DNA of 17,498 bases from Nanobdellota archaeon (GCA_030640565.1 DAOWJD010000014.1:1-17498), one strand, 5' to 3'. Positions 572 to 15,855 are shown, counted from the first letter of the stretch. Numbers and translations are program-made. The notes: generated from the letters alone by a model not told the origin.

Positions 572-618
572 GACCTGGTAGCTTAGTGCTTGCAGGGGTT
601 CGAATCCTCTCTCCCGCA
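499..618 (+). tRNA. tRNA-Leu (anticodon UAG), class II with long variable arm, contains an intron of about 36 nt; no encoded CCA
   Basis: Hand fold: acceptor GCGGGAG (499-505) pairs with CTCCCGC (611-617), discriminator A618. D arm is CCG/CGG with an A14 and GG-containing loop. T arm is AGGGG-TTCGAAT-CCTCT. Variable arm is AGC-TTAGT-GCT. Anticodon loop is CTTAGGA (567-573) followed by CCTGG. The 120 nt length needs about 36 nt removed to give an 84-nt class II tRNA. A73 plus the long variable arm fits Leu rather than Ser. Confidence 0.8.
530..565 (+). other. putative tRNA-Leu intron, boundaries tentative (+/-1 nt), apparently at non-canonical position 30/31
   Basis: Removing 530-565 joins CCAG to G and gives a perfect 5-bp anticodon stem CCAGG/CCTGG around loop CTTAGGA. 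Removing 531-566 instead leaves an A31-C39 mismatch. The intron has an internal hairpin TTAGG-TGTAATAA-CCTAA (537-554) whose CCTAA could alternatively pair with the anticodon-loop TTAGG (568-572). I could not draw a clean bulge-helix-bulge by hand. Confidence 0.4.
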
Positions 619-635
619 TAATTATTTCTAAATCT

Positions 636-3600
636 TTATCCAAAACATCCAAGTAATTGACAATATGCCATATATCTTGCATAAGTCCCTCTAACATATC
701 CTTCAGAAGTAATTTCAGTGCCATACTTAGCAACATCTATAACATTTTCTGGAATAATTGCATATTCTGGAGAATTTCCTGTTCTTTTCTCATATTCGAT
801 TTTTATAGTGTGATAAATAATTGTATCTTCTAAATCATCTTCCTTCTCACTAGCTTGGAAAGTTTTTAGATTATCACGAGTCAATAAATCCTCTCTTCCT
901 ACTCTTATTAAAAATTCTTCAACAACTTCCATTGTTTTATCACCAATATCTCCATCAAGAGCAAGATTACTTCTTAGTAAGACGTTTAATTGATTCTGTA
1001 AGGCAGCGTTTCTAGAAGAATATAATCCTGACTGATAATCTGCAGCAATGAGTTTAATCCTATCTTCGTCTAAAGGTTTTGTATTATAATCAGTGTAAAC
1101 ATTTATTATTTCATTTAAATATAATACTCCATAATAAACTCCTCCTTTCTGTGTATACAATATAGATCTCATCTCTTTATCAGAGTAATCTTCGTGGCTA
1201 TATTTCTGAGCCAATACCCTCGCCTTTTCTACATTTAATTGCATTGAACCAACTGTCTCTGGTCTGAATCCTTTAACAAATAGTTTTTCCACGAATCCAA
1301 CAGAATCTAAGAATTGCTCTAACTGCTTTTCTGTTTTAATTTCTCTTATTTGATCTTTATATTTTTCATAAAAACGATTAGCTCCACGATATTTTAATCC
1401 AAGCCACTCTCCTCCTTCTTTAATCTCTTGTAATTTCCTTTGAATTATGTTTTCTATATTTGGTGTAAGAGGATCTGCTCTAAAATCAGATTCTCTCTCT
1501 ATCGTACTAACTATCAAAGATACATGTTCAAACTCTAAAGGAATATTCCAATCAATCATTACTCTTAAAATAGCATTTGCCCATTCTTCTCCTTGCTCTT
1601 GATTAATATGACCTCTTCTATAACTTATAGCCTGAGAAATAGGTCCTCTTAATAATTCAGCTTCAGGAGGGAAAAAAACTCTTTCTAATGGGGACTCTGT
1701 TTCTATAGCACATTCTGGAAACATCTCCATAACAGCGTTTCTGTTTGTCTCATCTAATACATCTTCTACATACCTAGGATTTCCTACAGATTTTTTATCT
1801 CCTTCTTCATCTACATCTGTACATCGGGTATTCCATCCATTATAACTTCTCAAAGCACGTTTCCATCCAGAATAAGCTTTATTAACAAAATCACTTTCTC
1901 TAACAACACCCCATTTTATCTGCCTATAACAACTATAAACTCTTTCTGAAGAATCATAATTATCTATTAATAAATTAATTCCATATTTCACATTTTCTTC
2001 AAAAAGTACTTTTTCTCCATGCACATCTTTATTAATTTGCATAATACCCAGACTCTTATCCTCATCTCCTGAAATAACTTCTTTAATATCTTCCTCACAA
2101 TATAATGGATCCTGTTCTAGATTATCAGAAGATCTTTTACAATGTCTAATATTGCTTTCAACTCTTGCAACCATTAAAGCTAAACATTCAAAAGATTCTG
2201 CTCTTGTGCCTTCTTTAACCTTATTAAAATCGATTTCCGGGTGCTCTAACTTTTTCTCTCTTGCCATCTCTATTATTTTTCCACCTAAAAGTTTTTGGCA
2301 TTCTTCTAATGTAAAGCAGGTTTCTGCTCCTGGCTTAATTTCTAATCCAATTCCTGGTTCAGTTCCTAATTGAGAACCCTCTTGAAAGGCTAAGGCATCA
2401 ATACTAAAAATAGTCTCTGCGCCATTATAATAATCCGGCTCTTCTTCGTCTAAGCTTTCTATTAAATCTTCATTTTGTAGCCATGTTTCTTCATCCCATA
2501 TCTTCATTTTTCCAATAAAAACTTTTGCGGGAACATGTGCCCAATTTTTCTTATCTGGAGACCATCTCCATTTTTTTTGAGAAGAGTCAAATTCAAAATA
2601 AACATCTGTTGCTTCCTGCTGTTTCACTGTAAATCTTTCTTTATGAGATAATTCAACACTTTTTGTAGATAATATTACATTAGACAAAAGGCCTTTACCT
2701 TTATTTTGTGTTGTTCTGTCAATTAATAATTTTAATCCCTCTGAATAAGATTCACCAACGAATTTACTTGTAAACTTTTGCATTTCTTCAGATAATCCAT
2801 CAAAGGGATGTCTTAATCTTCCATGTGGGTCAATAGCCCATATGTCAGAGACACCTTTATCTGTAGTGTGCCAAGCACTTTTAGTTAATTTTCTATCCAA
2901 AGCCCAATACCAATTATTCCCAGAATATGAATAATAAATGCTAGTTTTTTCTTTAAATAAAACAACTCCTCCATATTTAAATTCAAAAATAGGATATGCT
3001 CCTCTTCCTGTACCAATTCTTTTCGTTTCTTCATCAATCTCTGCTAATTTTCTCGCAGCCTCTTCAGTTGTAGGTGCACCCTTATCACTAGTTGGCGGAG
3101 GAGTAGGTTTTTTCTGTATGGATTTAATATATTTATCATATATATCTGAAACAATTAACCTATAGAGGTTTGCTCTTAAAAGAATTAAAGAAGCTTTTTT
3201 AGTTGGATGGTAAACCTTATCAATATCTGCATTAATTATGTTTATTTTTCTAAAATTGTTATCTTCTTCTTCTACATCCTTAAGAAGTTCCTTAAATTCA
3301 TTATCACTCAAAAAATTACTTCCTTCTAAAGTTTCTATGTAACCAGGTGTTACTTCTTCTAAAATTTTATCCTCAATATTTGTATTTTTTATAGTGGTTT
3401 TTACACTGTTTGTATCAAGCCAGCACTGCATCTTTGTATCTCCACAATATCCAACAGGTTGCCATCTTGATTTGTTTGTTCTAATAAAAGCATCTGTGGC
3501 TTTTCCAGGATTATCTGTTGCACATATTCTTGTAATTCCACGATTGTATAAGGCAGGGTTTGTTATTTCTGTTGCTCCTGCCTGGATATTAGGACTTAAT

Positions 3601-6600
3601 AAACTCAAAACATTTGGAGTCCCTGAACGACATGCTGCTTCTGTAGTAATATCTGTCTGGCTTGCCTGAGATTCAACATATTTTTCTGCAACATAATTTA
3701 CCCCAAAAGAGGTTGTAACTTGTTTAAAACCGCACTCTTCCTGACCATTAACAATTATACACATCTGATGATAACCAGAAGGAGCTGTAAGATCTCTTGT
3801 TTCTGTGAAATAATCTCCTGCTTTAATAAATCCCTGAGCAACAATTCTTTTGAGAGATGCATCTTGATAGAAAGAACCTCCTGTTCCTCTAAGATAAACC
3901 TGGTAATATGCTGGGAAATCTTTTCCTGCATAAACATGATAAAATACTTTATATTGCGAGACAGGTGGATTTGTTGCTGTAGTGAAAGGAATTTCATCAA
4001 ATCTTCCATAAAACTGTACAGGAGAATCAGGAGTTATAAAGGTGTCAAATCCAGAAGGTCCTACAAAAGAAATGAAATTTTTACAGACAGATGTTCCTAC
4101 ATCTTCCACAGATCTTCCCTTAAAGGATTTGAAAGAGCTTGCAGCATATTGTTGTGTGAAAAAGTCGATAGAATCGGATGAACGTTGCCATGCATCCTTG
4201 ACTCCGAGATATTCTCCTCCTCCACGAGCCTTTTGCCCAAGCACTGTCCCAAGTCCCTCTGTAACAATTATTTTTGCCAATGGAATTCCTTGTCTCCAGA
4301 TAAGATCACACAGATACACACTATTGATTTCATCACAAACCCCAACTGTTTGTCCTGTATCCAAACTAGTTTGCAAACATTGTTGATAAGAATCAAAAAC
4401 AGTTAGCAAACTTTCAATTCCTGCATGGATTCCAGACAAACAAACAGGAACTTTTACTTCTGGGAAATTTGGCAAGCAAAGAAAAATACTTCCTGCTATC
4501 CCTGTCTGTACAACATCTTTAACAGGATATGCTCCCCCTAAATCACACCTTGAACTTGGGCATGCAACAGGATCACATACATTAAACATTAAATTACAAT
4601 CTGAAGGCGACATAAAATCCTGGCATTGTATATCTGGCCTTCCTGTTTCAGGATTTCCAACTTTAATTCTCTGTGAGGCCCCCCTTGGAGATATAATACT
4701 AACATGAGATACTCCTGAACGATGTTGTCTTTGCGCAGCTAAAATCGCTTTTTCAGCAGTATTTTTCAATGTTCTTAATTCTCCTTTGTCTAATCCTGAG
4801 AAATCAGGAGGTTGTCCTCCCCAAGTAAATCCTTCACAACTATCATCACCTATTCCTGAATTAAATTCTGCCTTATTATTTCCTCCAACATTGCAAATAT
4901 AAAAACTTCTTACAACTCCTGATGCATCATAAGCTCTTATTGCACCACCTATAGGCATAGTGGGTTTTATATAAGCATACCACCCATTTTGTAAATCAAA
5001 AGGAACAATTGCAGGAAACCCTGCATAAGCACCTGATTCATAATATCTTACTTCTGCATTTTCAAACGCATTTTCATAAGTTGTTCTATCAACTCTCTTG
5101 AAAAAAGCATTTTTTAAATCATCTGATGGACTTGAAACAAGACTACCATCTTTTTGATTATAAATTAATGGCTGGTCTTCTTGATCTCTTGCTACAGGAA
5201 ATTTATCTATTCCTCCTGTATCATCTAAAACAACTATATATGTCTTACCTGTATTAGATGGTAAAAGTACAATAGGTGTGTTTTCTTTAATAAGGGGTTT
5301 TCCATCATCATCTATTATGTTATTTATGCCTTCTAAAGATGTTTTACCTTGAATATTTTTATAGGTAAGTCCGCTATAATCCATTGCTTTTACTCTTTCA
5401 CCTTCTTGGAAAAATTCAATTTGAGAAGGAGCAACACCATACTTGTTTACCAAATTAATCCTTTCAGAAAAATATTCAGTGTTTGCTTTTATATCTGCTA
5501 GAATATCATATCTTTTCTTTTCTGAAAGCTCTTTAAGTTCTTCCCCAATATTTGGTGTTGATAAAACTTTTTGCAACCTGTCCAAATCTCTTGCTTGGCT
5601 TGGAGTTATTTTCCCTTCACTGAAACCCTCTTCAGAAAATGCACTTCCAACATTTGATGTTTTAGAAATCTCTATTTTTTCTCCAGCCTTATTTGGGTTA
5701 GTTATAGAACCATCTAAAGATTCTCTTATTCGAATTAATCTCTCAGCAGCATTTTCACTTGTAATTGCTTCTTGATTTTCTATTATTTCTGACACAATGT
5801 TAACATCTCTGTTAATTTTATCTGAATTGTTAAGAAGACAGGCATCAACATTTCTATAATCCCCTAATTTTTTCTTTTTTTCACAGAAATCAAACCAACC
5901 TCCATCACCCCTCATTACTTCCTGCCTTGCAAGTCCTCTCCCTCCGAGATTTGAAAAAAAGTTTTTAACAGTAAGACCAGTCCCAATACCAAGACATGCT
6001 GCTTTAAAACCACTGACAACAGTTCCAATCTTTTTGTTTATATTCTGCCATTTCTCTAAAGTTTTATTTAAAAATTCAATTCTTTCTCTTGTTTTTTCAG
6101 GGGATAATTGAAATAATCTTTTTTCAATCCCTATCTTAAATCCAAAAGTAGCATTTGTTCTTGCATAATTTATCTTAGGATTTATAGAAACTTTTGCTAC
6201 TTTTTTTAAATTAACTTCTTCAAGTGTAAACTGATACTTACTTCTAAAAGTCTCTGTAACCCCATGAGATAAAGTTTCAGTTGAAGGTTCTATAAAGAAA
6301 GCTATTACTTCTTCCACAGTCCTGCTCTTCTTAAGATTAACTCTTATCCTTGCTGTTGCACCTCTATCTAATTCACCTTTTTGCAAATCCAAGAGTTGAA
6401 TATATTCATCTGTATCACCTGTATCATCTGTAGTTTCACCCAAGTAAACAAGAGTATTTTGTCTTAACTTAACTGATTCTCTCTCTCCATTAGGATATCT
6501 GATATTTATAGTTGCGCTAAACTCATCAAGAGAAGGCTCTCTAACTGAACCAAAATTAATATTATAAATTCTTCCATTTATAACAACATTCTCAAAAGTT

Positions 6601-8378
6601 TTTTCAGAACTGGAAAATGCATAAATACTTTTACATACTTGTTCTTCTTCTAAATTAGGGTATGTTGCTTTAAATTCATTACAAAGTTCTAGGGCTGTTC
6701 TTTTCTGGTCAGCAGAAAATGCAAGATTTATTTTTCCAGATAAAGCTTCAGGACCTAAAGTTTTACCAGATTCCGAAGATTTTTCCTGAGAGAAATCTTC
6801 AAGTACATAATCATAATCTTCATTTCCACTAGAATAATAATTCTGGAAATTTGAGTCTTCTTTAGATGCAAGAGACAGTTCAGAATTAGTAGCATCTGCA
6901 AATCCTAAAATAGTTATACTTTTTCCAAAGGCATTTTCGGGTTTTCCAAAAGAAATAGTGTCAAATGATTGACCTGCAAGTCTTCTTATACCTTTTTCAA
7001 CAACGCCTACTCCAGCTTTTCCTGCTTTAATAGTGGCATCGACAAGATTTTTTGGGGTTTCAGAAGGTTGAAGATTTTTCATAAGTCTCCCAATAGACAT
7101 TATCCGATCTTCTTCAATACAATCTTCATCGCCAGGAGCAGACATAATAACAATAAATAAATCTCCTTCAGATACAATATTACTTTTTGTACCAGCATAT
7201 GCAAGATAAGCAGATTTATCGTTATTTATTTTATAAAGTTTTTGTCCAACCTTTACTGTTTTTTCTTCTCCTCCAACATCAATTTTTAATTTAGGCTTAT
7301 ACCCTATTTGGAAAGAGCTCCTCCTAGTATCTCCCTGACAACTAATAGTAACTTTCTCATTAATTCCGTGATTTTCTATATATTTTATTGTGCATTTATT
7401 ATCTATGAATTTTTCCCCTTCTTTTAATTCAAGAACATTACCATTTACTTTTAAATTAACCCTTGTACCAGGATTTTCTAGGTCTTTCAGTTGTACTTGC
7501 ATGGTTCCAAAACAATAATCAAAACCAGGTAGAGGGGTGTTTCTTGAAGATTCACCAACATTAAGATTAAGTGTAACAAGTTTTCTTTTTACATCTGACT
7601 TTCCAGAACCATAAGTTTCTCTATCAGAATAAACAGAGATAGTTGCTCCATTGTTATCAATCCCTTCTGCTCTCAGATAACCTCTTCCATCCCAAAAACC
7701 ATATCTTAAATAATTCTCTTCCCATTCATCTTCATTCATTTGAGGAAGATAAAAAACAGATCTTCCGACGCCAAAAGCATTTTTTATATCATATCTTATC
7801 TTAGCTGTTAAATTTCCTAAAATAAATTCAGGCATGATTGATTCATTTATTTGCTTTCTCAAAACTATGACAGCATATCCTATTTTATTTAAAACAGGCT
7901 GATTAAACTGGGTCCTGAATCTTCCCAAGGCAGCTCTTGCAGGCACATACGTCACTCCTACAACTTCTTTTGGTTTTGGTCCTGCAAAAGAGAAAGTAAT
8001 GGTACTGATTGTTTCAATTTCTATCATAGGATTAAGTTGTGTCGCAACTATAGGACAAAAAACAGGAACATTTTGATCCTCAAGGATGTCGCTTCTTACA
8101 ACAGACGGTTCACAACCTAAAGGATCAATTTGAAGAATAAAATCCTGTCCTGCTTCACACTTGTTTCTATCAAACAAAGGAAATCCAGGGTCTCCTGAAT
8201 AAGGAACATAAGTTGGAGAATAAGAAGTAAATGATCTTGAATAAGAATTAGAAGCACTGAAAATTTGCGCTGAAATAAATGAAATTAATAAAACTGTTAA
8301 AATCAAGGCACTAAAAACTAAGATAAATCTTTTCATATTCATACGCGTCATTATTTTATTTTTTGCTTTCATCTTCAC
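636..8378 (-). CDS. giant (about 2580 aa) secreted multidomain protein with two C-terminal lytic-transglycosylase-like domains
   Basis: Uninterrupted 7.7-kb ORF. The N-terminus MKRFILVFSALILTVLLISFISAQIFSAS has a Sec-type n-h-c pattern. A Pro/Thr linker KKPTPPPTSDKGAPTT (about nt 3069-3113) separates the large unrecognisable body from a C-terminal module carrying SLT-like motifs. The start is uncertain: GTG 8378 overlaps the upstream TGA stop (GTGA), ATG 8372 follows AGGTGA, and further in-frame ATGs occur at codons 10, 13 and 15. Confidence 0.9.
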   Translation of the reverse strand: MKMKAKNKIMTRMNMKRFILVFSALILTVLLISFISAQIFSASNSYSRSFTSYSPTYVPYSGDPGFPLFDRNKCEAGQDFILQIDPLGCEPSVVRSDILEDQNVPVFCPIVATQLNPMIEIETISTITFSFAGPKPKEVVGVTYVPARAALGRFRTQFNQPVLNKIGYAVIVLRKQINESIMPEFILGNLTAKIRYDIKNAFGVGRSVFYLPQMNEDEWEENYLRYGFWDGRGYLRAEGIDNNGATISVYSDRETYGSGKSDVKRKLVTLNLNVGESSRNTPLPGFDYCFGTMQVQLKDLENPGTRVNLKVNGNVLELKEGEKFIDNKCTIKYIENHGINEKVTISCQGDTRRSSFQIGYKPKLKIDVGGEEKTVKVGQKLYKINNDKSAYLAYAGTKSNIVSEGDLFIVIMSAPGDEDCIEEDRIMSIGRLMKNLQPSETPKNLVDATIKAGKAGVGVVEKGIRRLAGQSFDTISFGKPENAFGKSITILGFADATNSELSLASKEDSNFQNYYSSGNEDYDYVLEDFSQEKSSESGKTLGPEALSGKINLAFSADQKRTALELCNEFKATYPNLEEEQVCKSIYAFSSSEKTFENVVINGRIYNINFGSVREPSLDEFSATINIRYPNGERESVKLRQNTLVYLGETTDDTGDTDEYIQLLDLQKGELDRGATARIRVNLKKSRTVEEVIAFFIEPSTETLSHGVTETFRSKYQFTLEEVNLKKVAKVSINPKINYARTNATFGFKIGIEKRLFQLSPEKTRERIEFLNKTLEKWQNINKKIGTVVSGFKAACLGIGTGLTVKNFFSNLGGRGLARQEVMRGDGGWFDFCEKKKKLGDYRNVDACLLNNSDKINRDVNIVSEIIENQEAITSENAAERLIRIRESLDGSITNPNKAGEKIEISKTSNVGSAFSEEGFSEGKITPSQARDLDRLQKVLSTPNIGEELKELSEKKRYDILADIKANTEYFSERINLVNKYGVAPSQIEFFQEGERVKAMDYSGLTYKNIQGKTSLEGINNIIDDDGKPLIKENTPIVLLPSNTGKTYIVVLDDTGGIDKFPVARDQEDQPLIYNQKDGSLVSSPSDDLKNAFFKRVDRTTYENAFENAEVRYYESGAYAGFPAIVPFDLQNGWYAYIKPTMPIGGAIRAYDASGVVRSFYICNVGGNNKAEFNSGIGDDSCEGFTWGGQPPDFSGLDKGELRTLKNTAEKAILAAQRQHRSGVSHVSIISPRGASQRIKVGNPETGRPDIQCQDFMSPSDCNLMFNVCDPVACPSSRCDLGGAYPVKDVVQTGIAGSIFLCLPNFPEVKVPVCLSGIHAGIESLLTVFDSYQQCLQTSLDTGQTVGVCDEINSVYLCDLIWRQGIPLAKIIVTEGLGTVLGQKARGGGEYLGVKDAWQRSSDSIDFFTQQYAASSFKSFKGRSVEDVGTSVCKNFISFVGPSGFDTFITPDSPVQFYGRFDEIPFTTATNPPVSQYKVFYHVYAGKDFPAYYQVYLRGTGGSFYQDASLKRIVAQGFIKAGDYFTETRDLTAPSGYHQMCIIVNGQEECGFKQVTTSFGVNYVAEKYVESQASQTDITTEAACRSGTPNVLSLLSPNIQAGATEITNPALYNRGITRICATDNPGKATDAFIRTNKSRWQPVGYCGDTKMQCWLDTNSVKTTIKNTNIEDKILEEVTPGYIETLEGSNFLSDNEFKELLKDVEEEDNNFRKINIINADIDKVYHPTKKASLILLRANLYRLIVSDIYDKYIKSIQKKPTPPPTSDKGAPTTEEAARKLAEIDEETKRIGTGRGAYPIFEFKYGGVVLFKEKTSIYYSYSGNNWYWALDRKLTKSAWHTTDKGVSDIWAIDPHGRLRHPFDGLSEEMQKFTSKFVGESYSEGLKLLIDRTTQNKGKGLLSNVILSTKSVELSHKERFTVKQQEATDVYFEFDSSQKKWRWSPDKKNWAHVPAKVFIGKMKIWDEETWLQNEDLIESLDEEEPDYYNGAETIFSIDALAFQEGSQLGTEPGIGLEIKPGAETCFTLEECQKLLGGKIIEMAREKKLEHPEIDFNKVKEGTRAESFECLALMVARVESNIRHCKRSSDNLEQDPLYCEEDIKEVISGDEDKSLGIMQINKDVHGEKVLFEENVKYGINLLIDNYDSSERVYSCYRQIKWGVVRESDFVNKAYSGWKRALRSYNGWNTRCTDVDEEGDKKSVGNPRYVEDVLDETNRNAVMEMFPECAIETESPLERVFFPPEAELLRGPISQAISYRRGHINQEQGEEWANAILRVMIDWNIPLEFEHVSLIVSTIERESDFRADPLTPNIENIIQRKLQEIKEGGEWLGLKYRGANRFYEKYKDQIREIKTEKQLEQFLDSVGFVEKLFVKGFRPETVGSMQLNVEKARVLAQKYSHEDYSDKEMRSILYTQKGGVYYGVLYLNEIINVYTDYNTKPLDEDRIKLIAADYQSGLYSSRNAALQNQLNVLLRSNLALDGDIGDKTMEVVEEFLIRVGREDLLTRDNLKTFQASEKEDDLEDTIIYHTIKIEYEKRTGNSPEYAIIPENVIDVAKYGTEITSEGYVRGTYARYMAYCQLLGCFG
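1000..1595 (-). other. second, more divergent lytic-transglycosylase-like domain (domain of the giant protein)
   Basis: VSLIVSTIERESDFRADP (Glu-Ser at 1488-1493), then about 80 aa later ETVGSMQLNVEKA (G codon at 1248-1250), then GGVYYGVLYLNEII. The order of signature elements matches the first domain but the E-to-GxMQ spacer is longer. The call rests on motifs only. Confidence 0.4.
1824..2216 (-). other. SLT / GH23-like lytic transglycosylase domain (domain of the giant protein)
   Basis: ECLALMVARVESNIRHC (candidate catalytic Glu codon at 2157-2159, followed by Ser), then SLGIMQINKDVHG (GIMQ at 2037-2048), then YGINLL and AYSGWKRALRSYNGW. This is the E-S ... G-[LI]-M-Q-[IV] ... Y pattern of family 1 soluble lytic transglycosylases and goose-type lysozyme-fold proteins. 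Confidence 0.65.
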
Positions 8379-10204
8379 CTAAATCCTATTTCAAGCCCCT
8401 TTGTTTCAAATAATAAATGATTGATTTGTAATTGCTCAATTGTTTCAGGCACTGAAAAGCTTTTTGTATCTATCTCAATAGTACTAAAACCGATTAATTC
8501 AGATTCTAAAATATAATATTTTTGTTTTCCTCCTCCTACAAGAGCTTGAGATATTATCTGTTCAGGAACCTCAATTTCAAAACATTTTTCTTCCTTTAAT
8601 CCAAAAGCTCCAAGAACTCCTGATTTTGGAATTTCCATACACTGCTCTGTTGTTGTTTCTCCAATACTAATAGAAGAATCCCTATAAATATAAACATGTA
8701 CTTCATATTGTCCTTCTGCTAACTCTACAATTCTCTGCTCAGGATAAAGAACAGTTTTAGTAAAATCATCTGAAACAAAATAAATTATTGCATTTTCATT
8801 ATAGTTTACTCCGTCGATTTTTAGCTGAATATTTTTATTGTAAAGTTGGTCCATAATAACTGTCAGACTTCCTGGAGAAACTGTTGAAAGTAAATATTTA
8901 GAATCCTTGAAACCTTCTGCTTTAGCTATAACATATCCATTAACACACTGTGGGAAGTTCTCTGAGAGTCTTCCTGCTTCAGTTTCTCCTATATTACATT
9001 TATTTCCAAAACATTCATAAGAAATCTGTGCTTCTCTTACAGGATTTCCTTGCTTGCTCACCACATTAATTTCAATTTCAGAATTTTTATACTGGCAAAG
9101 CTCTGGAACAACACTTTCAATTGCAGTTACATTCAAGGATTGTCTTGGATTATTATTTTGAATAACAACTGCCATAGGAAACTGAAAAATTTCATCTCCA
9201 GAATAAACCTGTACAAGAACAGGATATTTCATACTATAAACAAAATGATAAGGAACATAACAAAATCCCATAATTCCTAAACCAGGTTGGTTTCCTACAG
9301 GATTTGCTATTAAAAGATTTTCTTCAGAAGGCATAACTTCAAAACTATGTGGCCAGTTTCTTGAATTCAAAAATCTAACCTCTTCTTTTACAGAAACATC
9401 AAGAATAAAATAACCATCAGCATCTACTTTTGTATTAAGTGCTAAAGTATTTACTTCAATAGCCTCCTGCAATTCATCAAAAATCTCGTCTGCATTCTTG
9501 ATGAAAGGGGAACACGTAATCTCAACTCCATCAACAGGAGCATAAAGTCTTAATATATCAATTGCATATTCTTCTAAAAATAAATTCTCTTGCTCTTCTT
9601 CATATATCTTTTTCGCAGAATCATAAAGATCTCCTAGTTCTGATTTTACAGTAATCTTATGGTCTTTTATTAAAATACCTTCATTTCCTATAGATATATT
9701 TAGGTTTGCATTGAGTTTAACTCTGACTTCATTATCTTTAATTGTTGCTTTTGCTTCTGATTCTAACAGTGAAATTTCAAACCCTTGGTCATAATAAGAA
9801 TTAAAATTACAGTTATTTATTCTGCCTTCAATAAAGGATTCAAGCTGTTGCTCCATTTCTGTTTCTGTCGGAATCTGTTCTTTTTGAATATTATTTCCAG
9901 AAACATAATACCAATAAGGGATAGGGTTTCCAAGAAAATTCAATTGGGAAGAGAAAGGCATGTATTCAGAACCTGGCTCAAATTCTGGTAAAGAAATATA
10001 TCCTCCTTGACTTTGTAAAACATTTATACCTGTTAAAGTATCTTCCTCTAAACAAGTTAAGAAAGTTGTGTAAATTGGTTCAATATTCTCAGGAATATCT
10101 GTCTTAGTCAAAGTAGTTCTCAGAATAAAATAAGCACCAATTCCTGCAATAATAAGTATTGCAATTATAATGAAAATTGTTACCTGTCCACTCTTATTTT
10201 TCAT
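8375..10204 (-). CDS. 609-aa secreted or membrane-anchored protein with pilin-like (class III-like) N-terminus and a beta-sandwich-like domain; function unknown
   Basis: N-terminus MKNKSG-QVTIFIIIAILIIAGIGAYFIL is a short basic segment, then Gly, then Gln+1 and a hydrophobic helix. This is a near match to the archaeal prepilin-peptidase pattern, except that position -2 is Ser. The segment IEINVVSKQGNPVREAQISYE...GYVIAKAEGFKDSKYLL resembles CarboxypepD_reg/PEGA-like beta-sandwiches. Its stop overlaps the giant gene start and its start overlaps the 45-aa ORF. Confidence 0.85.
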   Translation of the reverse strand: MKNKSGQVTIFIIIAILIIAGIGAYFILRTTLTKTDIPENIEPIYTTFLTCLEEDTLTGINVLQSQGGYISLPEFEPGSEYMPFSSQLNFLGNPIPYWYYVSGNNIQKEQIPTETEMEQQLESFIEGRINNCNFNSYYDQGFEISLLESEAKATIKDNEVRVKLNANLNISIGNEGILIKDHKITVKSELGDLYDSAKKIYEEEQENLFLEEYAIDILRLYAPVDGVEITCSPFIKNADEIFDELQEAIEVNTLALNTKVDADGYFILDVSVKEEVRFLNSRNWPHSFEVMPSEENLLIANPVGNQPGLGIMGFCYVPYHFVYSMKYPVLVQVYSGDEIFQFPMAVVIQNNNPRQSLNVTAIESVVPELCQYKNSEIEINVVSKQGNPVREAQISYECFGNKCNIGETEAGRLSENFPQCVNGYVIAKAEGFKDSKYLLSTVSPGSLTVIMDQLYNKNIQLKIDGVNYNENAIIYFVSDDFTKTVLYPEQRIVELAEGQYEVHVYIYRDSSISIGETTTEQCMEIPKSGVLGAFGLKEEKCFEIEVPEQIISQALVGGGKQKYYILESELIGFSTIEIDTKSFSVPETIEQLQINHLLFETKGLEIGFR

Positions 10205-10331
10205 GTTTCTTCGCCTCTGCTATTTTTTTTCTTATAAGTTCTAGTATTTCAGTATTAATATCTTTTGTTATACTCTCTTTAAATTTCTCCCAAAGCTTTT
10301 CATCCTCTACAAGAAGCAAATATTTTTTCAT
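10194..10331 (-). CDS. small 45-aa ORF, ribbon-helix-helix (CopG/Arc-like) pattern; not in the supplied ORF track
   Basis: Hand translation of the minus strand gives MKKYLLLVEDEKLWEKFKESITKDINTEILELIRKKIAEAKKHEK, stop TAA at 10194-10196. It reads as a short beta strand (YLLLVE) plus two helices, as in RHH DNA-binding proteins. It is preceded by GAGGGGTG (10335-10342 on plus as CACCCCTC), complementary to an archaeal 16S 3' end. It overlaps the ATG (10202-10204) of the 609-aa gene by 11 nt. Confidence 0.45.
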   Translation of the reverse strand: MKKYLLLVEDEKLWEKFKESITKDINTEILELIRKKIAEAKKHEK

Positions 10332-10366
10332 AAACACCCCTCAACTCTAATCTAAAAAAATTCTAA

Positions 10367-10374
10367 TATATAAA
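10367..10374 (-). promoter_or_regulatory. TATA box candidate for the 45-aa / 609-aa / giant gene operon
   Basis: The minus strand reads AGAAACA-TTTATATA, a purine-rich BRE-like stretch followed by a TATA box. It lies about 39 nt upstream of the ATG at 10331, which leaves a short leader containing the SD-like GAGGGGTG. Confidence 0.45.
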
Positions 10375-10392
10375 TGTTTCTTAATAACTTAT

Positions 10393-10411
10393 TTACTAAG
10401 TTACTTAGTAA
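10393..10411. promoter_or_regulatory. perfect 9-1-9 palindrome TTACTAAGT-T-ACTTAGTAA, candidate operator
   Basis: Read directly: 10393-10401 is the exact reverse complement of 10403-10411. It sits about 20 nt upstream of the TATA candidate and about 50 nt downstream of the 65-aa gene stop. Confidence 0.4.
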
Positions 10412-10462
10412 GTAAAACAAGGCACGTGTGGATTATGTGAATTTATTGACATTAAACTAATA

Positions 10463-10660
10463 TTAAGAATACATTCTTCCTTTTTTGAAATAACTAAACC
10501 CTCCAATTATAAGAAGAACTCCTCCAATAAAAATTATCCATGATTCAATTAAAGTAAATGATTCAGGGATTTTTACAAATCCAAGAGGATAATTTAGAAA
10601 ATATAAGGCAAAGATAATATACAAAAACATAAACAAAACCCTGAATCTCTTTCTTCTCAT
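10463..10660 (-). CDS. 65-aa small membrane protein, two predicted TM helices
   Basis: MRRKRFRVLFMFLYIIFALYFLNYPLGF...WIIFIGGVLLIIGGFSYFKKGR has a basic N-terminus, two hydrophobic helices and a basic C-terminus. It has its own TATA-like box upstream. Confidence 0.55.
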   Translation of the reverse strand: MRRKRFRVLFMFLYIIFALYFLNYPLGFVKIPESFTLIESWIIFIGGVLLIIGGFSYFKKGRMYS

Positions 10661-10677
10661 AAAAAGATAATAGGGGC

Positions 10678-10690
10678 TATATATATAAAC
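10678..10690 (-). promoter_or_regulatory. TATA box candidate for the 65-aa gene
   Basis: The minus strand reads GTTTATATATATA, centred about 24 nt upstream of the ATG at 10660. This is compatible with a leaderless or very short-leader transcript. Confidence 0.35.
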
Positions 10691-10712
10691 TTTATTGGAA
10701 AATGCTTAGTTT

Positions 10713-11285
10713 TTATTTTTTACTTCCAATTGGAAAACGATAACCACATGTTAAAGCAATCATACCTTTTACATTTTCACTTCCTGGCCACACTATATAA
10801 CTGATTCCTCCATGAAGTTTATTAATTTTTACACCAGCACCAAACTTTAATCCAAGTGTTGTATTTGATACCTTCTCACGAATGCCAAATTGGGGAAGAT
10901 TTATTTCTGAATTTTCGATTAATACATTTGCACCAGCCATCAAATAAGGTTTTACTTTTGCTGTTTGTTTTGATAAATCAAACCTTACCTTAGCACTTAA
11001 CAAAGTACTCCTTGTTTTTATGCCTTTTTCTTTTGCTGATGACTTAAAAAAATCTAAACCAACTCCACCCCCAATTACTTTTCCACTAAGACTATAATCT
11101 ACACCAACCATGGTAGAAGGTTTATAAGCTTGTTTTTTTGCAGATATAGGGACTATTGTTCCGACCCTTAGTCCAATATAGTGCTCTAAAGATTGGGCAT
11201 TAAGTTCCAAAGGTATAAACAACATTAGACTCATTAAAGCTGTCCTCTTCGCTTTCCTTACTATTAATTCTAATCTTTGTTTCAT
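10713..11285 (-). CDS. 190-aa secreted protein with the pattern of an 8-stranded outer-membrane beta-barrel (OmpX/OmpW/OMP_b-brl-like)
   Basis: Signal-peptide-like N-terminus RKAKRTALMSLMLFIPLELNA-QS (AxA-type site). It is followed by eight amphipathic alternating segments: YIGLRVGTIV, TMVGVDYSLS, VIGGGVGLDFF, LLSAKVRFDL, KPYLMAGANVLI, TLGLKFGAGVKI, HGGISYIVW, MIALTCGYRF. Polar loops separate them. The last strand ends in an aromatic Phe near the C-terminus, followed by PIGSKK. Confidence 0.6.
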   Translation of the reverse strand: MKQRLELIVRKAKRTALMSLMLFIPLELNAQSLEHYIGLRVGTIVPISAKKQAYKPSTMVGVDYSLSGKVIGGGVGLDFFKSSAKEKGIKTRSTLLSAKVRFDLSKQTAKVKPYLMAGANVLIENSEINLPQFGIREKVSNTTLGLKFGAGVKINKLHGGISYIVWPGSENVKGMIALTCGYRFPIGSKK

Positions 11286-11324
11286 TTTATTTGAATTTTA
11301 TTTATTGCCATGCATAATTCATAA

Positions 11325-13796
11325 CTAAACATAATAACATGCTCCATAATTACATATTTCTATCTTACATCTTCCTGAGATGCATCCATGTTCACAATCT
11401 TCTATTTTCTTTTTTGAAGTAGATGATATACAATCTGAATCAGAACAATCTCTTGTTATATAGTCTCTATAAACATTATCATTATGACAGTAATTATCTC
11501 CAGTATATCCACTTACTCCACATTCTTGAACTTTTTCCTCTTCTATATATTCATTATCAAAACAAACCCCTATAGAACACCCTTTATTATGACAGATTTT
11601 ATCATGATAAACATCTCCATCTTCACAATAATCATCTTGCCAATCCTCACAATAATCAGAACCACAATCTTCTTTTAATTCAAGAGCAGTTGAATTTGAG
11701 CAATATGAATCACCTGTTCCAGCATTATTGCATGTATAAGTTATATAATTTTGCCAGACATTATCTTCCTGACATGATGAATCTCCCACATAATCATTAA
11801 CACCACATTCAGAATCATTATAACATTCTACATATACACACTCCCCGTCTAAACAGCCTTCAGCTCCGCATTCTTGAACTTTTTGCGTTGTTGTATTTTC
11901 AAAACAAGCTCCATCTGAACAACCCCTATCTGTAAAATTCTGATAAACATCATTATCATAACAATAATTATCACTATGGGAATCTTCTCTGCAATCCTCT
12001 TTCATAATTATATTGCTTTCATCGCTACAAAAAGATTGTTCTGTTCCAGGATTATTACAAGTATATTCTCTATACCACTGGTAAACATCATTATTAGAAC
12101 ACCAAGGACTCCCACTGAGATCATTTACTCCACAATCTATATTAGAAGAACAAATTATATTTGGATTTGATTTACAATTCCCATTTATGCATCCATACTG
12201 GCATGTTTCAACAAATCTTTCATTTTCATATGAATTTGAATAACAATGAACACCAAATGACGTTGTGGTTGTGCATCCTTTGTTATAACAAAGTTGGGTT
12301 TCATATGCGTCGTCCCCGTGGCAAGTATCTCTATACCAATCAGAACAACCATCATTTCCACACTCCTGTTTTTTTTCTTCTCTATTATCACATGCATCAT
12401 ACCAATAAATATCATTATAAGCACACTTTGTATATGAATGACTTGTACAAGTTATACAGGTTCCAGAACCATCACATTCATTATTTGTTCCGCAAGAAGT
12501 GTGTTTAGGTTTATTTGTATAATCAATACAAGCCATAGCAAAACTACAACTACCTGCTCCATTACAATATTTACCTACATCATGATAATTCCTACAAGTT
12601 GTATCTAAATAATCACAGTCTTTAGTTCCACAAACTGTTGAAGTTCCATAATAATTACAAGTGGAATCTCCTGCAGTACAATATTCACAAATTCCACAAG
12701 TATCATAATTAAAAGTACCCCAAGTATAACTAGCACTTAAACCAGTGCAATAATAATCTCTCTTAATAACAGAACTTGTTCCTGTTGGAGAATTTATTCC
12801 AGAGCAATAATAAGAATCAATATAACCTGTTGGTTGACTTAGATAAGGTTTAAATTCATATGGCCTGCTCGACAAATCACAACAAACTCCTGAAAGACAA
12901 TCGCACTCTCCATTTACATAACCATAAACACTATAACTAGAAGTAGACATCTCCCCAACTTTATTGCCAAAATCATAAATTTTAACATAAAATTCTCCAC
13001 TTGCTCCAGGGTCAGGAATAATCGCATCACTTAAATCAACACTCAAGAAATCTCCTTCAAAATAAAAAGATTCGCAATCATAGCTTTTACTTGAACCACA
13101 ATCCCAATCCACAAGATCATCAGGAAAAATCCCGTCATATTCCATCAAATCTATACACCAGGTAACATAAGCATAGCCATTCCTTGCACAATCATATAAA
13201 TCTCCATAATCTGGATAAAATCTTGCTCTTCCTTTAACAATAATATCTATTTCCTCATTCTCACAAACATTTGAAGGCAAAGAAGGGTCAAATTTAATAT
13301 AGTACGTAGATGAACTTGTAGATAAAACATATTCTTTTCCATCCCTCATAATATAACTTGTACCATTTCTATTAAGAATTTCACTAGATAAATTCATAAA
13401 ATCATCTATTTCAGTCTCATTAACCCCTTCTGTATAATTAGTTTCATTTTGATTGTCCACAATTTCATTTAAGACAGGAACATCAACAACATTTCCAGTT
13501 ATTACAGGAGCAGAAGAAGCACTGCCTCCACTTCCTCCTCCAGAAGATTTCTTAGAAGAGGATTTTTTATCAATCTCATCAAAAGTAAACTTAATTTCAT
13601 TACCTAAAGAATTTACATCTTGAGAAGTATCTTGTTCAGTATCAAGTAAAATAAGTTCTGTCCCTATATTGTTTTCATTATCTGATTTCCTAATTTCATT
13701 TGTAATTATAACTCCTGAAGAAACCACTAAGACCGAGATTACTAAAAAGATTAATGTAACACTTGCTTTTTTAGAAGTTAAAAAAAAACTTCCCAT
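11325..13796 (-). CDS. 823-aa secreted or anchored, extremely cysteine-rich repeat protein (adhesin-like); function unknown
   Basis: N-terminal anchor or signal SKKASVTLIFLVISVLVVSSGVII, then a Ser/Gly linker KKSSSKKSSGGGSGGSASSAP, a Cys-poor domain of about 200 aa, then aa 298-823 with 63 Cys by my hand count (about 12 percent). Confidence 0.85.
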   Translation of the reverse strand: MGSFFLTSKKASVTLIFLVISVLVVSSGVIITNEIRKSDNENNIGTELILLDTEQDTSQDVNSLGNEIKFTFDEIDKKSSSKKSSGGGSGGSASSAPVITGNVVDVPVLNEIVDNQNETNYTEGVNETEIDDFMNLSSEILNRNGTSYIMRDGKEYVLSTSSSTYYIKFDPSLPSNVCENEEIDIIVKGRARFYPDYGDLYDCARNGYAYVTWCIDLMEYDGIFPDDLVDWDCGSSKSYDCESFYFEGDFLSVDLSDAIIPDPGASGEFYVKIYDFGNKVGEMSTSSYSVYGYVNGECDCLSGVCCDLSSRPYEFKPYLSQPTGYIDSYYCSGINSPTGTSSVIKRDYYCTGLSASYTWGTFNYDTCGICEYCTAGDSTCNYYGTSTVCGTKDCDYLDTTCRNYHDVGKYCNGAGSCSFAMACIDYTNKPKHTSCGTNNECDGSGTCITCTSHSYTKCAYNDIYWYDACDNREEKKQECGNDGCSDWYRDTCHGDDAYETQLCYNKGCTTTTSFGVHCYSNSYENERFVETCQYGCINGNCKSNPNIICSSNIDCGVNDLSGSPWCSNNDVYQWYREYTCNNPGTEQSFCSDESNIIMKEDCREDSHSDNYCYDNDVYQNFTDRGCSDGACFENTTTQKVQECGAEGCLDGECVYVECYNDSECGVNDYVGDSSCQEDNVWQNYITYTCNNAGTGDSYCSNSTALELKEDCGSDYCEDWQDDYCEDGDVYHDKICHNKGCSIGVCFDNEYIEEEKVQECGVSGYTGDNYCHNDNVYRDYITRDCSDSDCISSTSKKKIEDCEHGCISGRCKIEICNYGACYYV
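11367..12425 (-). repeat. divergent tandem Cys-rich modules within the 823-aa protein (protein-level repeats)
   Basis: Recurrent unit C-x2-[ND]-[DN]-[VI]-[YW] ... C ... [KQ]-[EV]-[EQ]-[ED]-C-G ... G-C-x-[DNS]-G-x-C. Examples are CGVNDLSGSPWCSNNDVYQWYREYTCNNPGTEQSFCSDESNIIMKEDC and CGVNDYVGDSSCQEDNVWQNYITYTCNNAGTGDSYCSNSTALELKEDC, plus repeated KVQECG..GC..G.C closures. DNA identity between units is low, for example atcattaacaccacattc versus atcatttactccacaatc. Confidence 0.7.
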
Positions 13797-13820
13797 AAAA
13801 TAAGGACTTCTTTATACCTT

Positions 13821-14024: not shown

Positions 14025-14336
14025 ATGAAAATTCCGAAGACAACAAACAGATTTTGTCCTTATTGCAACAAAAAAACAAAGCAAAAAATAAAGATAGTAG
14101 GAACAGGATTCCAAAGAGGGACTTTAACAAGAGGTTCTAAATCAAGAGCTAAATTAAGGGGATTGGGGAGGGGAATTGGAAATAAAGGTATTTGGGGTTC
14201 AAAACCAGCCCAATCAAAACACAAAAGAAAATCTAAAACAACTAAAAAAACAAATTTCCTTTATGTCTGTGATGTTTGTGGGAAAGCAAAATACCAGAAA
14301 AAAGGAAAAAGAGCAGGGAAAGTAATCCAAGAATAA
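14025..14336 (+). CDS. rpl44e: 50S ribosomal protein L44e (eL42)
   Basis: MKIPKTTNRFCPYCNKKTKQK...FLYVCDVCGKAKYQKKGKRAGK is a very basic protein with a CxxC...CxxC zinc ribbon and the characteristic KxPK..R.YCp.C..H start of archaeal L44e. Confidence 0.9.
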   Translation: MKIPKTTNRFCPYCNKKTKQKIKIVGTGFQRGTLTRGSKSRAKLRGLGRGIGNKGIWGSKPAQSKHKRKSKTTKKTNFLYVCDVCGKAKYQKKGKRAGKVIQE

Positions 14337-14337
14337 A

Positions 14338-14448
14338 ATGGCAGATAAGGATGATTTTCTCGGAACAGGAAAAACATCTGGAGAAAAGATAGGAAACTTT
14401 ATCCCAAAATTAAGAAGACTTAAAAATAAAGGAATTTGGGAAAGATGA
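14338..14448 (+). CDS. possible 36-aa small ORF (MADKDDFLGTGKTSGEKIGNFIPKLRRLKNKGIWER), unknown
   Basis: Its ATG lies 1 nt after the rpl44e stop. Its TGA overlaps the ATGATG start of the next gene, so it exactly fills the gap. I recognise no motif, and it has no CxxC so it is not S27e. Confidence 0.25.
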   Translation: MADKDDFLGTGKTSGEKIGNFIPKLRRLKNKGIWER

Positions 14449-14954
14449 TGGAAAAGAATATTATATTTATGGATGGGGAATTTGCAAAACTAAAACCAGA
14501 TGGAATTGATTTATTATCCCTAGCCTTAATTAAACCAAATGGAGAAGAACTTTACTTGGAAATAGAATTTGATGGAGAAATAAGTCCTTGGGTAAAAGAA
14601 AATGTATTGCCTAACCTTAAACAAGAGAAAGTATCAAAAGAAAAAGCAACTGAATTAATTAAAGATTTTGTTGGAAATGAAAAACCATATTTAATTGCTT
14701 ATGTAAATCAATTTGATTGGATGGGAATTTGCAAATTATTTAATGTAAAAAATACAGAAGATATCTCAAAATTGCCTTTTTTCTGGGCACCTATAGACTT
14801 TGCAAGTATTTTATTTGAAAAAGGAGTTAAACCAACGATAAATCCAATAGAGCTTGCAAAAAAATATCATATTGAAGTCTCAACAATAAAAAAACATCAT
14901 GCGTTAGATGATGCAAGGCTTTTAAAGAAAATATATGATAAAGTTATAAAATGA
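14445..14954 (+). CDS. DEDDh-family 3'-5' exonuclease (DnaQ/RNase T-like fold)
   Basis: Exo I is FMDGEF (DxE), Exo II is YVNQFDWMGI, Exo III is HHALDDARLL (H-x4-D). The tracked start at 14436 is TTG. The ATG at 14445 (MMEKNIIF) is more likely. Confidence 0.75.
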   Translation: MMEKNIIFMDGEFAKLKPDGIDLLSLALIKPNGEELYLEIEFDGEISPWVKENVLPNLKQEKVSKEKATELIKDFVGNEKPYLIAYVNQFDWMGICKLFNVKNTEDISKLPFFWAPIDFASILFEKGVKPTINPIELAKKYHIEVSTIKKHHALDDARLLKKIYDKVIK

Positions 14955-15301
14955 AAAAAATAAAAGTTTTTGGGATAAAAAAATCGGAATGGAAGAATTA
15001 TTATATTTTCCCAAAGAAGAAAGAAGTTTTTGAAATAATTAGAAATCTTCTAAGAGAATTAGGTTTTGAAGAATGTGAATGGGAGCATTTTGGTAGACCA
15101 ATTGATAAAAAACAAGGAGAACCTATACTTAATAAAGAGGAAAATATTAAAAAATACATTGATGAAAGAATAGGATTTGATAACGAAGAATATTCTATAG
15201 AAGTGATTTTTGGAAAGGACAAAGTCTTTCTAATTATCCATACGGAAACAAATAAACAACAGAAAATATCAAAAATATTAGATAAATTTATACAAGAATA
15301 A
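14951..15301 (+). CDS. 116-aa hypothetical protein
   Basis: Its ATGA overlaps the upstream stop and it ends 1 nt before rps3ae. It has coding-like composition and no recognisable motif. Confidence 0.6.
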   Translation: MKKIKVFGIKKSEWKNYYIFPKKKEVFEIIRNLLRELGFEECEWEHFGRPIDKKQGEPILNKEENIKKYIDERIGFDNEEYSIEVIFGKDKVFLIIHTETNKQQKISKILDKFIQE

Positions 15302-15302
15302 A

Positions 15303-15854
15303 ATGGCACAAGCAAAAAGAAAACAAAAATTTTTCGATGTGAATATGCCTATAATAAAAAAGGAGACCCAATTATATGGTTATGACCTTAAAGATTTTGA
15401 TGGAAAAACAATAACTTATGACTTAACAAGGTTACTGAGGGGGAAAGCCATACTCTTAAAATTAATAGTTAAGATTGAAGGGGATAAGGCAATTGCAGAA
15501 CCTAGAGAATTAAAAGTTATGCCTTATTTCATCAGAAGAATGATGAGAAAAGGGACAAATTATGTTGAAGGTTCTTTTTCTGCTGAATGCAAAGAAGGTA
15601 TACTAAAAATAAAGCCTTTCTTAATAACAAGGAAAAAAGTTTCAAGAGCTGTCAGAAAAGCGCTTCGGGAAAAAGCACAAGAAGAGCTAACAAGTTATGT
15701 AAAAACAAAAGATACAGAAACACTTTTTGATGAAATTATGAAAAACCAACTTCAAAAATTCTTAAGTTTAAAACTCAAAAAAATATATCCTCTTTCTCTT
15801 TGTGAAATTCGTTTCTTTGCAATCAAAGAGAAGAAAAAGAACAAAACAGAATAA
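15303..15854 (+). CDS. rps3ae: 30S ribosomal protein S3Ae (eS1)
   Basis: KRKQKFFDVNMP...LLRGKAILLKL...YFIRRMMRKGTNYVE...KKIYPLSLCEIRFFAI follows the conserved archaeal S3Ae pattern (K..W..v..P, L.GR, dy.Rs.vrr, kkiyPl..veir). Confidence 0.85.
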   Translation: MAQAKRKQKFFDVNMPIIKKETQLYGYDLKDFDGKTITYDLTRLLRGKAILLKLIVKIEGDKAIAEPRELKVMPYFIRRMMRKGTNYVEGSFSAECKEGILKIKPFLITRKKVSRAVRKALREKAQEELTSYVKTKDTETLFDEIMKNQLQKFLSLKLKKIYPLSLCEIRFFAIKEKKKNKTE

Positions 15855-15855
15855 C

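Follow-up and report, generated by a model that had tools for sequence, protein, structure and literature searches.

A conserved four-gene cassette for a giant exported protein with exchangeable, putatively murein-directed C-terminal modules in Pacearchaeota- and Woesearchaeota-type archaea

A cluster of genes for exported proteins was analysed in a window of 17,498 nt from Nanobdellota archaeon (GCA_030640565.1, DAOWJD010000014.1:1-17498), the window being the whole stretch of DNA that was studied. The source is a DPANN archaeon of the Pacearchaeota/Woesearchaeota type (Nanoarchaeota). Six open reading frames (ORFs), here named gA to gF, lie at 636-13796. Four of them, gC-gD-gE-gF, were found to be a conserved unit at a fixed chromosomal position, with gA and gB as an accessory pair. 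The largest gene, gF, encodes an exported protein with a constant core and an exchangeable C-terminus, which in the window carries a divergent lysozyme-like domain and a DUF1615 domain. It is moderately likely, in our view, that gF is a surface-tethered and autoregulated scaffold on which exchangeable murein hydrolases are presented to a bacterium, either a partner or a prey. The cluster had been described in a sequence-only reading, in which all six genes were taken as a candidate uncharacterised surface module, perhaps directed at a peptidoglycan-containing partner cell.

All six ORFs are on the minus strand, and the ORF listing returned the coordinates of the sequence-only reading: gA at 11325-13796 (823 aa, 68 Cys), gB at 10713-11285 (190 aa), gC at 10463-10660 (65 aa), gD at 10194-10337 (47 aa from GTG) or 10194-10331 (45 aa from the ATG at 10331), gE at 8375-10204 (609 aa) and gF at 636-8378 (2,580 aa). 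The overlaps of 11 nt between gD and gE (10194-10204) and of 4 nt between gE and gF (8375-8378) are real. An alternative start for gF is the ATG at 8372, with AGGTGA just before it, and gE and gF are tightly coupled whichever start is used. gD, gE and gF are a translationally coupled trio. The GC skew was strongly negative over 600-13,800, which is consistent with a single long minus-strand coding block. Hydrophobic segments were scored by a Kyte-Doolittle 19-mer. The four larger proteins had been said to start with hydrophobic segments, and this was found to be so for gA, gE and gF (strong, 2.8-3.0), but gB has only a weaker, Sec-type leader. Likewise, the description of all six products as secreted or membrane proteins does not hold for gD, which has no hydrophobic segment and is soluble. 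Searches of the six proteins against NCBIfam and PHROGs gave nothing useful.

Relatives of gE were counted by scanning a single genome of each GTDB species with a pattern, 80 loci were fetched, and synteny was determined by tblastn of the window proteins against 84 loci. gE relatives were present in 274 species genomes. gE and gF were adjacent in 81 of the 84 loci, the remaining three being cut by contig ends. The ribosomal protein genes L44e and S3Ae were located upstream in 66 and 62 loci, respectively. gC was found in 54-56 loci, directly upstream of gD/gE, and gD in 42 loci; both counts are lower bounds because the queries are short. On long contigs TFB, S8e, LSM and an RNase-Z-like gene were located downstream of the cassette. 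In contrast, gA and gB were found in only 3 of the 84 loci, and the view of the six genes as one conserved module was rejected in favour of gC-gD-gE-gF. A word-indexed search returned at least 395 gF homologues of 1,830-3,100 aa, and those with a source name were labelled Pacearchaeota, Nanoarchaeota or plain 'archaeon'. A phmmer search with the central 671 aa of gF gave 1,070 clusters (50% identity), and 919 of these matched below 1e-30. The gF homologues come from metagenome-assembled genomes (MAGs) of Pacearchaeota, Woesearchaeota or Nanoarchaeota.

Some loci had features of their own. The archaeal S3Ae-L44e-gC-gD-gE-gF block was found on two contigs labelled as bacterial, DATKUW010000047.1 ('Bacillota bacterium') and JAHYJW010000006.1 ('Patescibacteria group bacterium'), which are most likely mis-binned archaeal DNA. 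At locus L085 (8120-14906) the place of gF is taken by successive ORFs of 60, 300, 1,431, 429 and 31 aa, and gC and gD were not called; the gF homologue may be fragmented there, that is pseudogenised or mis-assembled. At locus L003 (5209-6153) genes for SMODS (cyclic-oligonucleotide synthase), a glycosyltransferase and a methyltransferase separate L44e/S3Ae from the cassette. The interval from L44e to gC, which in the window also holds gA-gB, appears to be an insertion hotspot. Further giant exported proteins are encoded within about 7-10 kb of the cassette in the same genomes, among them one of 3,198 aa with faint MG2/NPCBM_assoc matches (L002, 23302-26621) and one of 1,692 aa with Laminin_G_3 (L004, 1-4761), so these archaea hold several very large surface proteins.

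The gF protein was divided into parts by blastp against 120 homologues and by a conservation profile. A signal peptide or membrane anchor is found at aa 1-36 (8271-8378, minus strand), with a hydrophobic core at aa 18-36 (Kyte-Doolittle 2.76) followed by SAQ. The conserved core, aa 1 to about 1745 (3144-8378, minus strand), was delimited by the blastp boundaries, the conservation profile and an alignment, and is common to the whole family with 40-50% identity over about 1,700 aa. The profile and alignment also gave about 30 invariant cysteines. The core is strongly constrained and, because of its cysteines, clearly extracellular, and the assignment of gF as an exported, disulfide-rich protein is supported. 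The most conserved part, aa 1247-1451 (4026-4640, minus strand), has column conservation of 0.69-0.84 and is Cys-rich, moderately hydrophobic and predicted to be helical.

Sequence searches of the PDB gave no match, either for gF alone or for the gF family profile, and the core was modelled with AlphaFold2. A model of aa 40-1100 from 58 sequences reached a predicted local distance difference test (pLDDT) value of 76.6, and in it residues 79-420 and 595-752 form beta-rich domains, while 423-590 and 760-980 are helical. A model of aa 1090-1760 reached 64.1; its confident parts are an alpha/beta domain (1099-1246), a beta-sandwich (1452-1559) and a helical end. Region 1247-1451 had a pLDDT below 50 although it is the most conserved part. 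Beyond the signal peptide the most hydrophobic stretches are 784-802 and 1284-1372, both within conserved, poorly modelled regions. Foldseek comparison of the two models (aa 40-1760) with the PDB gave no match at E<=1e-3, only generic Fn3/ApaG or cadherin-like sandwiches, and comparison with BFVD gave no match.

Behind the core, gF is variable. A W-rich linker module (PIFEFKYGG..., aa ~1750-2000; 2379-3131, minus strand) was delimited by blastp, has an occupancy of 0.33-0.56 and gave no Pfam match. It is followed by a domain resembling SLT and goose-type lysozymes (GH23-like) at aa 2020-2224 (1707-2321, minus strand), identified from the family alignment, motifs and a PDB profile search. All three motifs of family 1 (E-S, GxMQ and YNG) are present in the order seen in SLT/GH23: VARVES at 2070-2075, GIMQIN at 2111-2116 and SYNGW at 2178-2182 (YNGW at 2179-2182), with E2074 as the candidate catalytic glutamate. 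In the alignment of this domain E65, G102, Y170 and N171 are invariant and S66, M104 and Q105 are conserved at 90% or more. The profile gave six PDB matches, all of them g-type lysozymes (best, 153L, E 0.036), and Pfam SLT matched 9 of 20 family members at E<=1 (best E 1e-4). Compared with family 1 lytic transglycosylases and goose-type lysozymes (SLT PF01464, GH23), the gF domain shares the motifs in order and spacing, but it is very divergent, has extra conserved cysteines and inserts, and is fused to the end of a giant archaeal protein.

The second C-terminal domain of gF is DUF1615, aa 2262-2570 (669-1595, minus strand), matched by Pfam PF07759 over profile positions 4-314 of 319 with an E value of 2.9e-39 (135.6 bits against a cutoff of 25). 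It was the sole match in a Pfam scan of the window gF, and no characterised member of DUF1615 was found in the literature searched. The two E-S...GxMQ pairs reported before were both located in gF. The second lies within DUF1615, as TIERES at 2292-2297 (E2296) and GSMQLN at 2377-2382, and an hhalign comparison of DUF1615 with the SLT-like profile aligned ES and GxMQ (E 2e-4, probability 48%). To call gF murein-lytic twice over is therefore plausible as a prediction from motifs and profiles: the first domain is reasonably supported, whereas for DUF1615 the evidence is suggestive.

Elsewhere in the family this C-terminal position is taken by different modules, among them VanY (P0034, 2064-2189), matrixin M10 (P0117), TPM (P0053) and DUF2272 (P0059). 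Two homologues, P0061 and P0051, have a pretoxin-HINT domain (PT-HINT, PF07591) with a tail of about 300 aa, and canonical SLT as well as LRR domains are found at the C-terminus of some others. A census with hidden Markov models (HMMs) of 216 full-length members gave 104 with the SLT-like domain, 10 with a DUF1615-like domain and 107 with neither. In the commonest alternative tail (CxxSIEFVY...SSHAVIF) a Cys and a His are invariant. This tail was considered as an NlpC/P60-like cysteine peptidase, but Pfam and PDB profile searches returned no match for it and so give that reading no support.

The C-terminus of gF is a swappable effector slot on a constant scaffold. The same logic is seen in polymorphic toxin systems (Rhs, CDI, MAF; pretoxin-HINT), in which a long constant N-terminal region is likewise joined to interchangeable C-terminal enzymes. 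gF might accordingly be a released antibacterial weapon, a secreted or shed effector that kills competitors or prey and forms no stable attachment organ. The variable enzymes behind a constant N-terminal region fit this explanation, as do the PT-HINT variants with their tails and the occurrence in one position of murein hydrolases that differ in their chemistry (glycosidase, D-Ala-D-Ala peptidase and DUF2272). Other archaeal peptidoglycan hydrolases have been shown by experiment to kill bacteria (PMC12352652), and a 'vampiristic' lifestyle is proposed for Woesearchaeota by Vigneron et al. 2022 (PMC9723730). Unlike polymorphic toxins, however, the gF family has no RHS/YD or haemagglutinin repeats and an archaeal producer, and its effectors are mostly wall hydrolases, not nucleases or deaminases. 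An immunity gene is neither needed nor seen, so the diagnostic feature is missing. In the window, Pfam found no HINT domain in gF, and a tRNA and a LAGLIDADG ORF, not a cognate immunity gene, were found downstream. Classical polymorphic toxins diversify within species, and a 1,745-aa invariant core with a pilin-like partner exceeds what a diffusible lysin needs. A released weapon is thus considered a rather unlikely account of gF.

Domains such as SLT and VanY are typical of classical autolysins. The lytic domains of gF could in principle remodel a murein-like wall of the archaeon itself, and DPANN genomes hold many bacterial-type genes according to Castelle et al. 2021 (PMC8204110). No murein synthesis genes were found in the window or in the flanks examined, roughly half of the family lacks the module or has another in its place, and a housekeeping autolysin requires neither a giant invariant scaffold nor PT-HINT variants. 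An autolysin role is very improbable.

In all 84 loci gE starts with a signal of the form [KR]x[GAS]-Q-[VIL]-T-x-F-I-I that leads into a hydrophobic helix; in the window the N-terminus is KSG-QVTIFIIIAILIIAG. Judged from its sequence pattern, this is a predicted archaeal class III (prepilin-type) signal. Beyond it, about 580 aa make up a large predicted extracellular domain, for which no Pfam or PDB relative was found, the gE profile giving only insignificant Ig-like matches in the PDB. A short charged N-terminus, the [KR][GA]-Q motif and some 20 hydrophobic residues are shared, family-wide, with archaeal type IV pilins and bindosome components. In comparison with these the globular part of gE, at 580 aa, is far larger, and no pilus assembly or prepilin peptidase genes are present in the locus or window. 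gC, which is conserved too, is a hairpin protein in which hydropathy shows two transmembrane segments, and its gene has a TATA-like element of its own upstream.

SlaB, the stalk protein of the Sulfolobales S-layer, is anchored at its C-terminus. The adjacent genes for a large and a small exported protein, the small one membrane-anchored, recall the SlaA canopy and SlaB stalk, and gF and gE could be components of the archaeon's own envelope on which the enzymes are merely displayed. A coupled gene pair of this kind, present once and at a fixed place by ribosomal-protein and TFB genes in every locus examined, would suit such a role. The same can be said of the beta-sandwich-rich core, which resembles that of many S-layer proteins, and of the half of the family that has no recognisable lytic module. 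We know of no other S-layer candidate for these archaea. The likeness to SlaA/SlaB does not extend to sequence or fold, for which no match was found; the gE anchor is N-terminal, and gF is Cys-rich with enzymatic C-terminal modules. S-layer proteins are, moreover, usually fast-evolving and Cys-poor, unlike the gF core with its 40-50% identity over 1,700 aa and its roughly 30 invariant cysteines. N-glycosylation sequons are very sparse in gF (0.23 per 100 aa), tight operator-based regulation would be unusual for a constitutive major envelope protein, and swapping of PT-HINT and enzymes at the C-terminus is typical of effectors, not lattices. A purely structural envelope role is therefore regarded as unlikely.

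The operator in question is located upstream of gD. gD has the consensus MKKYLLLvEDEKLWEKFK..DINTEI..LI.KKI, and 16 of its residues are invariant when 16 of the 42 orthologues are aligned; its stop overlaps the start of gE. Its beta-alpha-alpha pattern recalls Arc/CopG. No ribbon-helix-helix (RHH) match was obtained in Pfam scans of the 16 orthologues or in a PDB profile search, in which gD matched only de novo designed proteins. gD is a candidate RHH-like autoregulator. The TATA/Shine-Dalgarno (SD)/palindrome control region reported 5' of the 45-aa gene is present. In the window the promoter and operator occupy 10355-10415 (minus strand), where palindromes are followed by AAGAAACATTTATATAT (TFB recognition element (BRE)/TATA) and then by the SD sequence GAGGGGTG; the window TATA, upstream of gD, is TTTATATAT. 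A palindrome with 13-nt arms is found at 10389-10415, with overlapping palindromes of the TTACTnAGTAA type, and the sole occurrence of the operator motif in the window is at 10393-10415. The 110 nt 5' of gD are conserved across the order, with one to three TTACTnAGTAA-type palindromes and then AAGAAACATTTATATAT. Among the fetched loci, 1.3 Mb in all, 40 TACTNAGTA sites were found, and 27 of these, in 26 of 36 loci, are at most 150 nt 5' of gD, an enrichment of about 160-fold. The BRE/TATA block was found in 29 of the 36 loci. Given a palindromic operator in front of a tiny, near-invariant and coupled first gene, autoregulation by gD would be the best explanation.

A murein-directed surface role is the best reading of these genes, and may operate as follows. 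gF would be exported by its N-terminal signal or anchor, so that the disulfide-stabilised core of about 1,745 aa, with its beta-sandwich arrays and helical regions, comes to lie outside the cell. The core would act as the constant scaffold and the C-terminal end would present the interchangeable enzyme modules, here a GH23-like lytic transglycosylase/lysozyme domain followed by the putatively lysozyme-like DUF1615 domain, both expected to cut murein glycan strands. gE may be processed like a type IV pilin with its N-terminal hydrophobic helix kept, and gE together with the two-transmembrane protein gC would most likely tether or present gF at the surface. gD would most likely bind the TTACTnAGTAA palindromes just upstream of the TATA element and thereby autoregulate gD-gE-gF. 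With this apparatus the archaeon would be able to bind to the wall of a bacterium, be it partner or prey, and to open that wall locally.

The idea that such proteins act on bacterial walls has been published. Castelle et al. 2021 (PMC8204110) described large lytic-transglycosylase proteins, extracellular and reaching 3,000 aa, as specific to Pacearchaeota and Woesearchaeota, and proposed that these enzymes serve in attachment to bacterial walls; earlier sightings are cited there (Rinke 2013, Castelle 2015). The bacterial-wall idea is repeated by Vigneron et al. 2022 (PMC9723730) and in PMC11537232. The giants of fam00969 (Castelle et al. 2021) resemble gF in lineage, size class, export and the lytic-transglycosylase-type domain, the match between gF and fam00969 being one of description. 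gF homologues are, in addition, annotated 'transglycosylase SLT domain-containing protein [Pacearchaeota/Nanoarchaeota]'. The central inference of the sequence-only reading, an apparatus against a peptidoglycan-bearing partner, had thus already been put forward in print, and gF joins that family as a new member; the inference stands here as the best reading, qualified by the presence of the lytic domain in only about half of the family. The word uncharacterised suits the kind of module, but the gF family itself is already in the literature. Where the accessible parts of PMC8204110 and PMC9723730 define the protein by its lytic domain, the constant part was here found to be the 1,745-aa core and the lytic domain to be swappable. 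In those published accounts, so far as their text is accessible, the four-gene cassette, its fixed position, the class III signal of gE and the gD/operator pair do not appear to be described, nor do the exchangeable C-terminus with PT-HINT, the half of the family without a lytic module, and gA-gB.

A parallel had also been drawn with the SPEARE proteins of Ca. Nanohaloarchaeum antarcticus (Hamm et al. 2019, PMC6642349). As with gF, SPEARE is a giant surface protein of an episymbiotic DPANN archaeon with a proposed role in host interaction. SPEARE, however, exceeds 5,000 aa, is characterised by serine protease, adhesion and restriction-endonuclease domains and is unrelated to gF in sequence, its host is an archaeon without murein, and Pfam finds in gF no serine protease, restriction endonuclease or related domains. 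With none of the defining domains of SPEARE present, the parallel is reduced to a conceptual analogy.

Several observations weigh against a scaffold for murein hydrolases. About half of the family is without a module recognised as murein-lytic, which means that the core must act independently of murein cleavage. The SLT-like domain of the window scored 13.7 bits against the Pfam cutoff of 21.3, and the PDB matches of its profile are weak. The predicted structure of the gF core, as modelled, has no relative in the PDB or BFVD, and its two most conserved hydrophobic regions lack a confident AlphaFold2 model. Neither HMM nor PDB searches support DNA binding by the candidate regulator gD. As to the partner, no bacterial host of Pacearchaeota is known, and fluorescence in situ hybridisation in PMC11537232 could not show contact.

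The accessory genes gA and gB, where present, have a constant order and always stand between L44e and the core cassette; homologues of both are also found on shared contigs elsewhere. gA is very acidic, with repeats of the type C-x2-[ND]-D-[VI]-[YW] and a class-III-like N-terminus (SKKA-SVTLIF). In its 64 homologues the same Cys-rich region is found behind variable CARDB, beta-helix, cohesin/dockerin or PPC domains, and by its sequence gA resembles an adhesin. gB is basic, with a Sec-type leader, and belongs to a family of only 22 homologues. It had been called a bacterial-type beta-barrel. The case for this is a single Pfam match just over the threshold (OMP_b-brl PF13505, E 2.6e-7, 31.4 bits against a cutoff of 28.7; PF13505 is precomputed on 15 of the 22 homologues), and a gB profile search of the PDB matched no outer-membrane protein. 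A lipobox (L-T-I-G-C) is present in most homologues, which suggests a lipoprotein. The gB C-terminus, ...GYRFPIGSKK, has no terminal Phe beta-signal, and the archaeal context of gB (S3Ae, L44e and TFB neighbours) argues against a producer with an outer membrane and a beta-barrel assembly machinery. The barrel assignment was accordingly downgraded to a lead, not a finding. Some lineages would add to the proposed apparatus an adhesin-like Cys-repeat protein, gA, and a small beta-barrel protein or lipoprotein, gB.

The flanks of the cluster are archaeal, as had been stated, with S3Ae, an L44e-like gene, nucleoside diphosphate kinase (NDK), tRNA-Val and tRNA-Thr. S3Ae reached 55.6 bits in Pfam. 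The L44e-like ORF at 14025-14336 (plus strand) reached 20.2 bits against a cutoff of 25, over the C-terminal 42 residues only, and its assignment is based mainly on the synteny conserved in 66 loci. Between L44e and S3Ae, at 14436-15301 (plus strand), lie two ORFs of 172 aa (Rv2179c-like, 3'-5' exonuclease-like) and 116 aa, the latter without a Pfam match. Neither had a tblastn match in any of the 84 loci; in other loci L44e and S3Ae directly abut, and the pair looks like a lineage-specific two-gene insertion. The NDK ORF is listed at 15802-16437 (plus strand) with a GTG start that falls inside the 3' end of S3Ae. This start is probably too far upstream, because the conserved NDK sequence begins at MAIEQTLVLIKPDG (ATG near 15856). 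On the other side of the cluster the intron-bearing tRNA was confirmed at 499-618, where it was recovered only by ARAGORN -i and missed by default ARAGORN and Rfam. It was called tRNA-Pro(agg), with a 38-nt intron at a non-canonical position. A LAGLIDADG-type ORF (frame 2, IGDGHLKK...) runs on the plus strand from beyond the contig start to 571 and overlaps the 5' half of this tRNA. LAGLIDADG-type sequences also come after gF in seven other loci.

Bacterial-type domains (OMP_b-brl, DUF1615 and SLT) in archaeal surroundings could point to an artefact, namely a bacterial or viral insert mis-assembled into an archaeal contig. The GC content is uniform over the cluster junctions (0.28-0.38) and about 30-38% along the whole window, and gD-gE-gF are identical in an independent ENA assembly. 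The order L44e - gA - gB - (gC) - gD - gE - gF, with trailing LAGLIDADG, is repeated in the independent MAGs or metagenome contigs L005, L025, L029, L085 and L087. The contig is not chimeric, since both junctions were found again in independent assemblies. No gE relatives were found in IMG/VR, and the window proteins gave no match in a PHROG search. An artefact is effectively refuted. A virus or mobile element was also considered and rejected on the same IMG/VR and PHROG results and on the fixed chromosomal position.

Few uncultured archaea are as abundant as the Pacearchaeota and Woesearchaeota, whose hosts and mode of attachment are a standing question. A giant exported protein with murein-cutting domains has been the main published clue that some of them live on bacteria. 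The present analysis adds a four-gene cassette at a constant chromosomal position in hundreds of genomes, which also comprises a pilin-like partner, a putative regulator that is tiny and near-invariant, and a promoter/operator conserved across the order. In this cassette the wall-cutting domain is one exchangeable module on a far larger invariant scaffold, which cautions against reading the family solely through its lytic-transglycosylase domain. The cassette also gives experiments a point of entry, since its domains can be expressed and its operator footprinted, and a surface antigen is at hand for imaging enrichment cultures. A bolder proposal, which we consider quite unlikely, is that gC-gD-gE-gF is a lineage-defining, autoregulated host-contact machine of a new kind. 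In this machine gE would present gF, the hydrophobic gF regions 784-802 and 1247-1451 (Cys-rich or Gly-rich) would insert into or remodel the envelope of the bacterial host, the C-terminal module would open the murein, and gB would in some lineages form a conduit in a Gram-negative outer membrane. If true, this would be the first molecular evidence of Pacearchaeota and Woesearchaeota parasitising bacteria, and would represent a new class of inter-domain attack apparatus.

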